Source: Escherichia phage EcM-vB1. From it: a DNA stretch of 64,000 bases. Position numbers and translations under genes: made by a program. The notes below the pieces were generated by a model. That model did not search any database. It saw only the letters and a program-made list of their open reading frames with translations, and was not told where the DNA came from. Location of the stretch: sequence record PV574017.1; one strand, given 5' to 3'. Shown one piece after another: positions 6,226-13,762 of the stretch (position 1 is the first letter of the stretch; each line of letters starts with the position of its first letter).

Positions 6226-6304
6226 TAGGAATATAGCCCCCTCTTTAGTACTATGACGCTCTTTCTGTAGCGTCGTGCCATCTCCCCATTTGAAGCTTCC
6301 GCAT

Positions 6305-6358
6305 AGCCGCCTTTGGGCGGCTTTTTGCGTTACCGCCTCCTTAATTGGAGGCTTTTTT
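6305..6358 (+). terminator. tandem rho-independent terminators
   Basis: AGCCGCCTTTGGGCGGCTTTTT and GCCTCCTTAATTGGAGGCTTTTTT hairpins with U-tracts. Confidence 0.65.
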
Positions 6359-6384
6359 GTATCTATTATATAGGAAACCATGAA

Positions 6385-7161
6385 ATGAAAGCATTTGCAT
6401 TGTCAGCTATTCTAGTTTTATCTGCCATTAGTGCCCCATCCTTTGCTCATTCTGACAAATGCTCACACTCTAAACAGTGTGAAGTCCAGCAGGGGCCGAA
6501 AGGTGATAAAGGAGAACAGGGTATTCAAGGCGAACAAGGTCCGAAAGGTGACAAGGGTGATCGCGGAGAGCAGGGCTTAAAAGGTGATACTGGATCGGCT
6601 GGCATCAATGGTACTAATGGCATTGATGGTAAAGATGGCATTGATGGTAAAGATGGCATTGATGGTAAAGATGGCATCAATGGTAAAGATGGCATTGATG
6701 GTAAAGATGGCGCTCAAGGTGAAAAAGGTGATTCTGGTGCAGATGGTAAGAAAGGCGAAACTGGCCTAACTGGTGCAGCAGGTTTGAATGGCGTTGACGG
6801 ATTAAATGGCAAAAATGGTAAAGATGCAGATATGTCTGCCGTTAATGCTAACGCCAAATCTATCAAAGCTCTGGAACAATCCACCAACAAACGTTTTGCT
6901 TCTTTGCAAAAACAAGTAGACCGTAACCGTGATCATGCCTCTGCTGGTATTTCTGGCGTGGCTGCAATGGCTAACATCCCGCAAGTAAGTCAAGGATCTG
7001 CTTTCTCTGTTGGTGCTGGGGTAGGTGCTTACGATGGTGAATCTGCTCTTGCTATTGGTGTTAGTGCTCGTTTCAATGAAAACGTAGTAACTAAAGCATC
7101 AGTGGCAATGACTTCAGAGAGTGACGCTGTTCTGGGCGCTGGTGTAAGTTACGAGTGGTAA
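6385..7161 (+). CDS. secreted collagen-like protein with YadA-type (trimeric autotransporter) C-terminal membrane anchor
   Basis: signal peptide MKAFALSAILVLSAISAPSFA; about 40 Gly-X-Y triplets (GIDGKDG repeats); C-terminal region GISGVAAMANIP...SALAIGVSARF...LGAGVSYEW resembles YadA anchor consensus ending in aromatic residue. Confidence 0.7.
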   Translation: MKAFALSAILVLSAISAPSFAHSDKCSHSKQCEVQQGPKGDKGEQGIQGEQGPKGDKGDRGEQGLKGDTGSAGINGTNGIDGKDGIDGKDGIDGKDGINGKDGIDGKDGAQGEKGDSGADGKKGETGLTGAAGLNGVDGLNGKNGKDADMSAVNANAKSIKALEQSTNKRFASLQKQVDRNRDHASAGISGVAAMANIPQVSQGSAFSVGAGVGAYDGESALAIGVSARFNENVVTKASVAMTSESDAVLGAGVSYEW

Positions 7162-7168
7162 GATAGTG

Positions 7169-7195
7169 CCTCTCCCGAAAGGGAGGGGTGTTTCT
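7169..7195 (+). terminator. rho-independent terminator (GAAA loop)
   Basis: CCTCTCCCGAAAGGGAGGGG hairpin then TGTTTCT. Confidence 0.55.
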
Positions 7196-7271
7196 ATAAG
7201 CATCTTTTCGAGGGTGTTTATTGAAACAACAAAACAGGAGGTAGCAAGTTCTGATAACAACGGCACAGCTA

Positions 7272-7661
7272 ATGTTGACATTGACTATTTATTATGAGGC
7301 AGGGAATCAGCCAACCGCATGTAAGGCTTTAGTTGCGGATACCGTGATAAATAGAATGGCCCAACGAAAACTGACCGCTGAACAGGTGATAAGACAAAAG
7401 AACCAGTTTGAGTGGATTCCGGTACTATTAAAACAGGAGAAACCTTATAAACGTTATGTAAAGCTGATTCGTGATAAAAATCCGATGACTAAGCAAGCCA
7501 TTGGAGAAAGCGAGCGACTTGCTAAACGTGCCCTTAAGAAGAATTATGTTCCGCTGTACAGTGGGACTTACTTTCAGAGTAAGAGCGAAGGGGTGCCAAA
7601 ATGGTATGCCAATCCTATGTATTGTGGTGATTTAGTGTTCGATAATAGCTCTAGGGAATAA
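7272..7661 (+). CDS. cell wall hydrolase, SleB/CwlJ-like (Hydrolase_2 family)
   Basis: N-terminal motif YYEAGNQP...ACKALVADTVINR matches EARGE...AVA.VI.NR signature of SleB-type hydrolases; start codon uncertain. Confidence 0.55.
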   Translation: MLTLTIYYEAGNQPTACKALVADTVINRMAQRKLTAEQVIRQKNQFEWIPVLLKQEKPYKRYVKLIRDKNPMTKQAIGESERLAKRALKKNYVPLYSGTYFQSKSEGVPKWYANPMYCGDLVFDNSSRE

Positions 7662-7860
7662 TCACTAGTGCCAGATTTGACAAACTAAATTCCTTTATAA
7701 ACCAACCACTTAGTAAATTTATTGAAAAAGATGGCAGTATTCTGGGACTATGGGTAATGCTCTGTATATAGACCCTTTGAAAATTTCTTAGAAAATAAGT
7801 TTACTAAATATAACTTACTTAAATAATATTACTTTTAATCTCTGATAAAGGGTAAATGAT

Positions 7861-8157
7861 ATGACTTTAGAAGTATATAAATTCCTTTTTGTAAGCTGTT
7901 TAACTATCAGCGTTATAGGGTTTATTGTTCTCAGAAACAAAGCAGCAAGCTGGGAGAGAATGTATAAATCACTAGTTCGAGTGGATGAGATGTATAACGA
8001 GAAAGTTAAAGTAACACTCAACGATCTTATTATGCAAGTTGAAGACAGAAACAAACGTCTTCAGAACCTCAATCATGAAGTGTTGCGCCTTGCTCGTGCT
8101 AATGAAGACTTACGAGTGGCTATTGCTAAGCAGCAGGAGATTAACAGTGAAAGTTAA
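7861..8157 (+). CDS. membrane-anchored coiled-coil protein
   Basis: N-terminal hydrophobic segment FLFVSCLTISVIGFIVL then heptad-like helix. Confidence 0.45.
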   Translation: MTLEVYKFLFVSCLTISVIGFIVLRNKAASWERMYKSLVRVDEMYNEKVKVTLNDLIMQVEDRNKRLQNLNHEVLRLARANEDLRVAIAKQQEINSES

Positions 8158-11661: not shown

Positions 11662-11835
11662 ATGAGTTGTTTTGGGGGCGGTGAAGTAGACGACGATTAT
11701 GACATGGAATCTAACGGTACATGTCCTGATTGTGGGTGTGAGACATGGGACGGGGTGTCTGTCTATCCTGCCTGTAGTTATTCACCAGTGATTTGTAAAA
11801 CATGCGGAGATCAACCTTGTGACCAGTCTTGTTAG
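11662..11835 (+). CDS. small Cys-rich protein (57 aa)
   Basis: AAGGAG RBS; eight Cys in CPDCGC and CKTCGDQPC arrangement. Confidence 0.4.
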   Translation: MSCFGGGEVDDDYDMESNGTCPDCGCETWDGVSVYPACSYSPVICKTCGDQPCDQSC

Positions 11836-12064
11836 TGTGTTAATAGTCTACCTGATAGGGTCAGTGGTATCAGGTGCTCTAATTAAGGTCATAGATGTTA
11901 AAGGTAATCAGTGTTTCAGAGGTTGGGATGGTGAGCCAGACCTCGGAAAGATAGCAGCTATGGTTTTCTTGTGGCCTATTATTGCTGTACTGTTTATAGC
12001 ACTTGTATCATGGGCTGCCCTTTGGGATTTCATCCTTCCTAACAAAAAGTATGAGGACTCATGA
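11819..12064 (+). CDS. small membrane protein (two predicted TM segments)
   Basis: ORF in track; hydrophobic segments SLVSVLIVYLIGSVVSGALI and MVFLWPIIAVLFIALVSWAAL. Confidence 0.45.
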   Translation: MTSLVSVLIVYLIGSVVSGALIKVIDVKGNQCFRGWDGEPDLGKIAAMVFLWPIIAVLFIALVSWAALWDFILPNKKYEDS

Positions 12065-12481
12065 CTGAAGAATTTTTAAAGTGGTTTGGTGATACCTTCA
12101 AAGAGTATCTATTCTCTCCAGAAGACTTTGAAGAACTGAAAACCTACACTTGGTTGGCTTGGAGAGATAGCCGACGAGAGATGAATAAGTAGTATCGTGA
12201 AGGATTCTTACGAGAGTCCTTTGAGATAGGACTTCAGATCTCCTATCAAACTAACATTCATGTAACTAGCCCATAAGGGCGTTACCCTTTAATAACCCAG
12301 CCCACTAAGGGGCGGGAGTTTAGTGCTGGATTGGCTTTACGCTTATTCCTACAAAGGCAACCGATTGTTAGATCTTACATGCAATATTAACTAATAGGAT
12401 AAGGGAGGATTCGTCCCCTCCCCCTATTTTATTGAATCTTTATCTAAGCAAGTCTTATATAAACGTTTAATTGGAGGATGT

Positions 12482-12793
12482 ATGAAAGCACGAAGAACTA
12501 TATGGACTCCGATGCAGATTGAAAATCTTCGGAGACTAATCAAAGAGTACTCGGTTCAAGAAGTTGCTCAGATTATGAATGTAACGGAGAATGCAGTTAA
12601 CACAGCTTGCACTAAATTCGGAATATCAAGAGCTTCAATACGAGTTAAATGGTCTAAAGAAGAAGACCAGTTCCTTATCCGTAATGCTGGGTTCATGTCC
12701 ATTCAGAGAATGGCTGACATGCTCGGTAGAAGTTATGCTGCTGTACAGAACAGGGCATGTATGCACCTTAACATTAGCCTCAAACTTAAATAG
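12482..12793 (+). CDS. putative DNA-binding protein (helix-turn-helix)
   Basis: GGAGGA RBS; segment YSVQEVAQIMNVTENAVNT resembles sigma70 region-4/HTH. Confidence 0.45.
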   Translation: MKARRTIWTPMQIENLRRLIKEYSVQEVAQIMNVTENAVNTACTKFGISRASIRVKWSKEEDQFLIRNAGFMSIQRMADMLGRSYAAVQNRACMHLNISLKLK

Positions 12794-12801
12794 GAATCAA
12801 G

Positions 12802-13029
12802 ATGAATTTTGAGCTAGTACCAAAAAGCAAAACACCCTCCAAGACTTTCTCTGACTTAGAGAATGGAGATGTTTTTCGTTTTACTGGTGACGATGTAGTC
12901 CCCAAATTCTGGATAAAAACAGGGAACATTCTGCAATGTGTGTTCGGAACTCTAAAGATATTTTCTTTCCGGTCCCTCTGTCCAATACTGTTGATCTGTT
13001 CGAATCTAAACTTATTATTCAGGGTAAGT
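12802..13029 (+). CDS. GDVF...FW family protein, probably frame-shifted near T run 12971-12974
   Basis: N-terminal GDVFRFTGDDVVPKFWIKTGN in track frame; family-like C-terminal PLSNTVDLFE only in alternate frame ending at TAA 13027-13029. Confidence 0.3.
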
Positions 13030-13070
13030 AAAATGAAGATCATCCCAAAGAAAAGGATAATACGGTACGA

Positions 13071-13277
13071 TTGGAAACAATCATTCCCGGAAACCCTTTC
13101 GTAGTTCAGAACGGAAGCGCTTCTCCTCAATATTACATGAGGGTTGAAAATGCTTCTGGTAACATCCGTATAGCCAGTGGTTGGGTTCCTGTGGTAAACC
13201 TTTCCACAGGTGTGTTATCTGTTAAAGGTCTTGACGATCAGGTAGAAATGATTCGTATGTCAGTGGTTCAGGAGTAG
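13071..13277 (+). CDS. small protein, GDVF family-like (TTG start)
   Basis: ORF in track; NLSTGVLSV motif. Confidence 0.35.
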   Translation: METIIPGNPFVVQNGSASPQYYMRVENASGNIRIASGWVPVVNLSTGVLSVKGLDDQVEMIRMSVVQE

Positions 13278-13531
13278 TGCATATGAGCATTATTAACATT
13301 AAAGTTAAAGACAAAGAGGAAAAAATCCTCCGTGTCAGAGATCTAAATATGTCAGATGTGTTCACTCTCCAAGAGTGCCAGAATCAAAAGGTTTATATGA
13401 TGACAGCTAAAAGCAGGGGTTGTCAACCTGCTGGAGCTGTTAACCTAGGCACTGGAGAACTACGTGTCATCTCTGGTGATATGGTTGTTGGTGAGAAGTA
13501 TATTAAGGCTGAAATCATCCTAACTTCGTAG
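13277..13531 (+). CDS. small protein, GDVF family
   Basis: ORF in track; SDVFTLQEC...NLGTGELRV. Confidence 0.45.
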   Translation: MHMSIINIKVKDKEEKILRVRDLNMSDVFTLQECQNQKVYMMTAKSRGCQPAGAVNLGTGELRVISGDMVVGEKYIKAEIILTS

Positions 13532-13762
13532 GAAAACAAATGAGACGTAAAGCATATTCTTATGACGATATGATTAACCAGAAAGGCTTCGGTCAACGAC
13601 AGCCTGATGGTTCAATTATCTGGTTTGTAAACGGACAGAAAAAGGTAGCTAAATAAGCCCTCTTCTCTCCTCCTTTTAGTACTATGACGCCTCTCTGTGG
13701 GCGGCCCAATTTGCGTAGGGAATTCCCTCTACGCAGCCATGACTTTTTAAGGAATTTCCCCT

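Follow-up and report, generated by a model that had tools for sequence, protein, structure and literature searches.

A repeated intergenic 16-mer in Escherichia phage EcM-vB1 as a predicted member of the tf/LUZ24-type nick-site family

What is the role of a short sequence that is repeated exactly just behind two early genes of a phage? The question is raised by a 64,000-nt stretch of Escherichia phage EcM-vB1 (PV574017.1; hereafter the window), in which an exact search finds the 16-mer TTTAGTACTATGACGC twice, on the + strand only, at 6244-6259 and 13675-13690. We propose that these two copies, together with a third, shorter family member at 48500-48512, are probably the places that a site-specific nicking activity, encoded by the phage, recognizes and cleaves. 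We prefer a nick site to a promoter because the 16-mer contains the exact sequence at which single-strand breaks lie in the packaged DNA of related Pseudomonas phages. The basis of this reading is sequence identity to a mapped consensus, a family of three copies, invariance across three genera and an ancestry shared with nicked phages; nicking in EcM-vB1 itself we infer by analogy with those phages.

The window region shares 99.9% identity with Escherichia phage EcP-vB and approximately 95% with phiEco32 (Kuravirus, Gordonclarkvirinae), and in it the + strand is sense for the early genes. The phi32_120 and phi32_119 homologs flank site 1, and the phi32_94 and phi32_93 homologs flank site 2. 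The original prediction had recognized this exact pair, and both copies are real, although its coordinates for the second (13676-13691) were off by one. Its account did not include site 3, which is on the - strand.

The core motif and mapped nick sites of related phages

The 16-mer can be written as TTTA-GTACTATGACG-C, and its core GTACTATGACG fits both the tf consensus TACT/RTGMC and the LUZ24-like sequence GTACTATGAC, as do all three sites in the window:

6244-6259, + strand: 16-mer copy 1 (site 1), with the core TACTATGACG at 6249-6258; predicted nick 6252/6253, by analogy with tf TACT/RTGMC
13675-13690, + strand: 16-mer copy 2 (site 2), with the core TACTATGACG at 13680-13689; predicted nick 13683/13684
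48500-48512, - strand: third family member (site 3), TAGTACTGTGACG, inside a 1488-aa late gene (phi32_26 homolog) and on its sense strand; predicted nick 48506/48505

By our estimate approximately 0.5 exact same-strand 16-nt pairs are expected by chance in 64 kb, so that the pair alone is borderline, and the window holds several exactly repeated 15-mers and one further 16-mer pair. The significance of the repeat therefore lies in the shared core and its conservation in relatives and not in the exact 16-nt pair alone. All three sites match the extended form GTACTRTGACG, and all three are on the sense (non-template) strand of the local genes. The sequence TACTRTGACG occurs three times in the window against 0.17 expected, and the 13-mer TAGTACTRTGACG three times against 0.00 expected.

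Phage tf has 14 mapped single-strand interruptions, all of them in 5'-TACT/RTGMC-3' and all on one strand, as documented by drops in sequencing, by alkaline fragments that ligase reverses and by primer extension. Sites that read TATT or CACT in place of TACT are not nicked in tf. In the LUZ24-like P. aeruginosa phages P1-14Or01 and Ab22, read ends pile up at GTACTATGAC or GTACTGTGAC, and for Rembedalsseter nanopore coverage breaks at WACTRTGAC; the Rembedalsseter study reported enrichment of the motif within a cluster of 61 Pseudomonas phages and called it "not enriched outside" that cluster. In the LUZ24 genome a G stands before the core in 9/9 sites and after it in 8/9, and the Kuravirus 16-mer therefore contains the LUZ24-type 11-mer exactly; in tf, a G at position 10, after the core, is found in 12 of the 14 sites. 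The sites in EcM-vB1 thus share with those of tf and LUZ24 an identical core, with G on each side as in LUZ24, and in both groups copies occur near the genome's early end, sense to the early genes and often at gene boundaries. The tf/LUZ24 phages infect Pseudomonas and their nicks have been mapped, whereas the present group infects enterobacteria and its sites are predicted from sequence.

Outside the Pseudomonas phages, Salmonella phage 7-11 (NC_015938), which belongs to a different family, contains 13 copies of TACTRTGMC against 2.9 expected, and 12 of these are on one strand, clustered at the early end. Nine core copies, all on one strand, are present in 48 kb of its genome, several of them inside genes and without a hairpin. 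This distribution predicts that 7-11 virion DNA is nicked, which has apparently not been reported previously. In tf, LUZ24 and 7-11, every site of the early and middle regions is on the non-template strand of the local genes, and each of these phages also has one or two copies antisense to local genes. As a separate observation on 7-11, its 12 copies on the early/middle sense strand lie approximately 1 kb apart at the far right end and are all preceded by C, usually AC, and further near-copies, AACTACTGTGA(T/G/A), occur on the same strand. We also observe that the RTG of the motif is often an annotated start codon, as at 2102/2103, 5267/5268 and 20794/20795 in tf (tf_04, tf_15 and tf_41) and at 15088 and 41745 in 7-11 (gp089 and one unnamed open reading frame (ORF)); a nick there would cut the sense strand directly before the start codon.

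About 17 proteins are common to phiEco32, tf, LUZ24 and 7-11 (TerL, portal, scaffold, major capsid protein, tail proteins, polymerase, primase-helicase, both exonucleases, the amidoligase/ATP-grasp cluster and gp58), so that the core genes of replication and morphogenesis are shared and inheritance of a common nicking system is plausible. In the mechanism that we propose, a phage nickase would cut one strand late in infection, between T4 and R5 of 5'-(G)TACT/RTGAC(G)-3', and the packaged virion DNA would then bear ligatable interruptions (3'-OH/5'-P) at 6252/6253 and 13683/13684 on the + strand and at 48506/48505 on the - strand, which would be resealed after injection. The time of nicking and the end chemistry in this proposal are taken from work on tf and phiKF77. 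Sequence-specific, strand-specific and ligatable nicks in virion DNA are also a feature of the phiKMV-like phages (5'-CGACNNNNNCCTA/CTCCGG-3') and of T5/BF23, although their recognition sequences, and the phages themselves, are unrelated to those considered here, and T5 has major and minor nick classes.

Conservation and surroundings of the three sites

Sites 1-3 are syntenic and core-invariant in Kuravirus, Suseptimavirus and Nieuwekanaalvirus, the three genera of Gordonclarkvirinae, while their flanks diverge. The motif is thus present in the relatives that were searched, which bears out the earlier suggestion of a sequence-specific element conserved beyond this phage. What is conserved is the asymmetric core TACT[A/G]TGACG, and neither the whole 16-mer nor the palindrome TAGTACTA. 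At site 3, too, the three genera keep the sequence unchanged, although the codons of the coding stretch around it vary (alignment A1). The complete phiEco32 genome has exactly three sites, at 27941 (+), 63070 (-) and 70592 (-), and SU7, with 97% of the genome covered, has the same three and no others. A scan of IMG/VR for the exact 16-mer returned only Kuravirus contigs and three unrelated coding matches. A possible depletion of near-cognate sites was considered and discarded, as an estimate based on composition looked significant but the deficit was mild and not significant against dinucleotide shuffles.

The base before TACT is G at 3/3 sites in Kuravirus and C at 3/3 sites in Suseptimavirus and Nieuwekanaalvirus, the latter as in 7-11. 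This concerted change across sites is suggestive of co-evolution with a trans-acting reader, a proposal that Glukhov et al. made for tf.

Around sites 1 and 2 the following features can be recognized in the window:

6235-6246, + strand: pyrimidine-rich tract AGCCCCCTCTTT of site 1, between the stop at 6225 and the core, read from the sequence; comparable tracts occur at the other sites
6255-6274, + strand: small hairpin GACGCT/AGCGTC of site 1, which overlaps the motif at its 3' end; -5.7 kcal/mol (z -3.1) when folded as DNA, with an RNA fold also predicted
6305-6358, + strand: two intrinsic terminators that separate site 1 from the collagen/YadA-like gene, with stems at 6305-6322 and 6335-6352 and a T-run each
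13657-13674, + strand: pyrimidine-rich tract GCCCTCTTCTCTCCTCCT of site 2, after the stop at 13656
13686-13705, + strand: weak hairpin CGCC/GGCG of site 2, which overlaps the motif at its 3' end; -4.4 kcal/mol (z -1.6) when folded as DNA
13712-13735, + strand: second hairpin TGCGTAGGGAATTCCCTCTACGCA, upstream of the gene at 13763; an annotated terminator in phage 4E8

The setting of the pair had been described in the original prediction in much the same way, as just after a gene stop, preceded by a CT-rich stretch, followed by a hairpin and upstream of a gene, and each of these elements is found at both copies. The stops are at 6225 and 13656 and each copy begins 18 nt later; a pyrimidine-rich tract precedes both; the hairpin is small and overlaps the 3' end of the motif; and the gene after site 1 (6385-7161, + strand) indeed encodes a collagen-repeat protein with a YadA-like membrane anchor. 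This last gene is built of 9-nt tandem repeats (6564-6761) and is replaced or absent in many relatives, with homology breaking at approximately 6331 and resuming at approximately 7231.

At each of the three Kuravirus sites the core is directly followed, on its 3' side, by a small hairpin. Among homologous sites generally this hairpin is present at most but not all, with loop length and register that vary, and is missing at site 1 of Nieuwekanaalvirus. RNAalifold gave no consensus structure across 12 site variants, because the hairpin arms are out of register, and the folds of the individual sequences are variable.

Alternative explanations and points against a nick site

The proposal that these are nick sites has to be set against several observations that do not favour it. 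The short form TACTRTGMC is not significantly enriched in the window, with three copies against 1.92 expected and as many or more in 28 of 100 shuffles. The tf/LUZ24 phages carry 8-14 sites per approximately 45 kb whereas only three per approximately 77 kb are found here, and their sites are all on one strand whereas here two are on the + strand and one is on the - strand, as is also the case in phiEco32 and SU7; 7-11 likewise departs from the one-strand rule, with one of its 13 sites on the other strand. The hairpin and the CT-rich tract accompany the Gordonclarkvirinae sites but not those of tf, LUZ24 and 7-11, and could reflect a different or additional function. Phage EP335 combines a G-type site 1 with a C-type site 2, so that the flanking base is not strictly fixed by lineage, which we attribute to the acquisition of a Kuravirus-type site 1 by recombination. 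Finally, no report of nicks in any Kuravirus was found in the searchable literature, which does not extend to the two main phiEco32 papers. The nick model also leaves unaccounted the pyrimidine-rich tract upstream, the hairpin 3' of the core, the constant 18 nt from the stops and the placement of site 1 ahead of terminators. As these features are specific to the subfamily and go beyond nicking, an additional role at the RNA level or in regulation is conceivable, and the element may have a regulatory role.

The promoter of the original prediction does not fit the data well, and we now regard it as improbable. It would use TACTAT/TACTGT as a -10 element (A at -11, T at -7) without a -35 element to drive the downstream genes, being read by the sigma70 holoenzyme, perhaps with gp79 displacing sigma region 4, or with an unknown phage activator bound to the CT-rich tract. 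TACTRT does resemble a -10 element, the motif is on the sense strand upstream of genes, site 2 of Suseptimavirus is approximately 35 nt before the next start codon, and residual -35-independent sigma70 activity in the presence of gp79 has been discussed (PMC12276001). However, a sigma70 scan that picks out strong early promoters at 522, 2471 and 3104 has no match at site 1 or site 2, where there is neither a -35 element nor a TG extension (-15/-14 is TA, and the -35 region is CT-rich). The phage sigma factor gp36 recognizes tAATGTAtA, situated 6-8 bp upstream of the transcription start and ahead of middle and late genes, and its six mapped promoters are upstream of genes 6, 13, 26, 40, 58 and 68 only; the motif is unlike this consensus, and all of the mapped promoters are elsewhere. 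The sigma70 early and gp36 middle/late promoters of phiEco32 are likewise conserved short intergenic motifs in the same phage group, but the motif described here fits neither class, and no promoter has been mapped or is predicted at these positions. Moreover, a promoter at site 1 would fire into two terminators before reaching any gene (three in ECBP2), site 3 is within a late ORF, the strict invariance runs through GACG and so beyond a -10 element, and in tf, LUZ24 and 7-11 the coding regions carry the same motif 9-14 times. The sigma promoter of 7-11, GTAAtg-N16-aCTA, was also compared by eye and set aside, as its upstream hexamer matches 4/6 at site 1 and there is no match at site 2. An operator bound without cleavage by a DNA-binding regulator of the phage or the host seems to us no more probable than a promoter. 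Its candidate would be the 8-bp palindrome TAGTACTA, which is present in Kuravirus within an element that is both conserved and intergenic; however, the palindrome itself is not conserved, with CAACTACTA or AGCTACTA in its place in the other two genera, the core that is conserved is asymmetric, and sequences with at most one mismatch to TAGTACTA are not enriched (23 against 29.7 expected).

The processing site that had also been suggested holds only in the sense of DNA nicking, because the core is identical to the consensus of the DNA nicks mapped in related phages, and not in the sense of RNA processing. An RNA cis-element, in which a single-stranded box UAGUACUAUGA and a small hairpin in early transcripts would form a nutR-like antitermination signal or a signal for processing or stability, is nevertheless worth considering, even if we think it unlikely. 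A lambda-type nut site acts through an N-like protein on the terminators downstream of it. In lambda nutR, boxA and the boxB hairpin are situated between the cro stop codon and tR1, and the order of stop codon, conserved box, small hairpin and terminator at site 1 is similar. All three copies are on sense strands with hairpins predicted at most sites, the sixth pair of the stem differs between site 1 (U-A) and site 2 (C-G), and the boxA-like repeats that follow the early promoters (see below) give the impression that these phages use antitermination signals, the mechanism of which is stated in the literature to be undefined. On the other hand, Rfam has no match at the sites, where searches returned only the tRNA, and RNAalifold, as noted above, finds no shared structure. 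The invariant part is the core and not the stem, and site 1 of Nieuwekanaalvirus keeps the core though the hairpin is lost. Site 3 lacks a terminator context, and the one or two antisense copies each in tf, LUZ24 and 7-11 also speak against a function in RNA. The likeness to nutR is further reduced in that the conserved box is not a boxA (CGCTCTTA-like), the hairpin is not kept in register and the third copy is coding; a nut/boxA sequence at site 1, which reads CGCTCTTTC, was rejected as it is not kept at the other sites or in the other genera, and real boxA-like repeats are found elsewhere (2421-3236). The least probable of the readings, and one that we consider largely refuted by the conservation data, is that the repeat has no function of its own and is a chance repeat or a recombination scar, such as a short linker duplicated at mosaic junctions. 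The borderline statistics of the exact pair and the other 15-16-nt exact repeats in the window would agree with chance, and in Paul, myPSH2311, EP335, ECBP2 and SU7 mosaic breakpoints fall within tens of nt of both sites. Breakpoints occur every 0.5-1 kb or so across the early region, however, and since they are frequent throughout it their proximity is uninformative; and the 10-nt core is invariant at three syntenic sites in three genera and identical to a functional motif of related phages. A mini-ORF starting at the ATG/GTG of the motif was rejected, as such ORFs have from 5 to 29 codons and no conserved peptide by eye, and the ATG in the window opens only ORFs of 5 and 29 codons.

Other repeats in the window were observed alongside these sites. 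The sequence CGCTCTTTAA(A/C/T)AAT has four + strand copies, at 2421-2434, 2530-2543, 2990-3003 and 3223-3236, against 0.08 expected, all within a non-coding stretch of approximately 2 kb that has strong early sigma70 promoters. The repeats are kept in phiEco32 (four copies), NJ01 (five) and SU7 (three). This sequence is nearly identical to the E. coli rrn boxA TGCTCTTTAACAA, and the repeats are candidate rrn-type antitermination signals. In addition, two long non-coding regions, 9069-9426 and 14212-14400, share an element of the form TATAGCC..GGCTATGTGAG ... CTAGGGAGAG..CTCGAACATCCG, which has no match in Rfam and may be an undescribed structured RNA or regulatory module.

A candidate nickase and the meaning of the sites

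In the mechanism proposed here the nicking enzyme would be encoded by the phage. In the literature searched we found no identification of a nickase of the TACT/RTGMC type. One gene in the window stands out:

33616-33930, + strand: phi32_58 homolog, a basic protein of 104 aa with an HNH-like motif VDHK..GGSN..NL..N; candidate nickase, by inference only

This is the best-conserved of the shared proteins, with 59-62% identity across the phiEco32, tf, LUZ24 and 7-11 groups compared with 25-47% for polymerase, primase and TerL, and it is the first gene after a mapped gp36 middle promoter. It has no match in Pfam. The pattern H57...N71-L72...N80 (VDHK..GGSN..SNL..N) does not vary in the family. It is typical of HNH (beta-beta-alpha-metal) nucleases, in which a His-Asn-Asn/His catalytic motif is set on a beta-beta-alpha fold, although here cysteines are lacking; some databases label relatives as HNH or McrA, and the PHROG entry (4590) reads 'unknown function'. 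The AlphaFold model is of modest confidence (pLDDT 67). Around the HNH-like homologs at 44 IMG/VR loci (716 kb), the motif occurs 72 times against 9.5 expected on the gene strand and seven times against 12 on the other strand, an association that may reflect simple shared ancestry. One contig, IMGVR_UViG_3300006802_000901, shows the reverse of the others, with five TACTRTGAC copies opposite the strand of the HNH-like gene and none on the gene strand. Judging from these sequence features, the product of 33616-33930 may be the nicking enzyme.

Taken together, these points allow a broader scenario, which we offer as speculation and hold to be rather doubtful as a whole. The nicking system of tf and LUZ24 would be ancient and common to the phiEco32-like and 7-11-like enterobacterial phages, with a nickase of the approximately 100-aa, cysteine-less HNH-like family of phi32_58, tf_29 and LUZ24 gp26. 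In Gordonclarkvirinae the system would have shrunk to three fixed sites, all on the non-template strand and each beside a small hairpin, of which two lie where early operons meet their neighbours. Were this so, the nicks would have roles that depend on their position, for example in staged genome entry, in early transcription or termination, or in recombination, rather than arising simply as a by-product of packaging.

Phages with site-specific nicks in their virion DNA have been on record for approximately 50 years, first T5 and then the phiKMV-like and tf/LUZ24-like phages, and the element described here is probably a new member of the tf/LUZ24-type family of nick sites, as predicted from its core. 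In Kuravirus sequencing, such nicks would give strand-specific drops in coverage and pile-ups of read ends that could be mistaken for genome termini. As two of the sites are intergenic, they can be mutated without changing a protein and their function is directly testable. If the prediction is true, the nickase has to be sought among only about 17 shared genes, one of which is a strong candidate, and the TACT/RTGMC system would reach beyond the 61-phage Pseudomonas cluster into well-studied phages of E. coli and Salmonella, of which the E. coli phages would represent a minimal system with three conserved sites.

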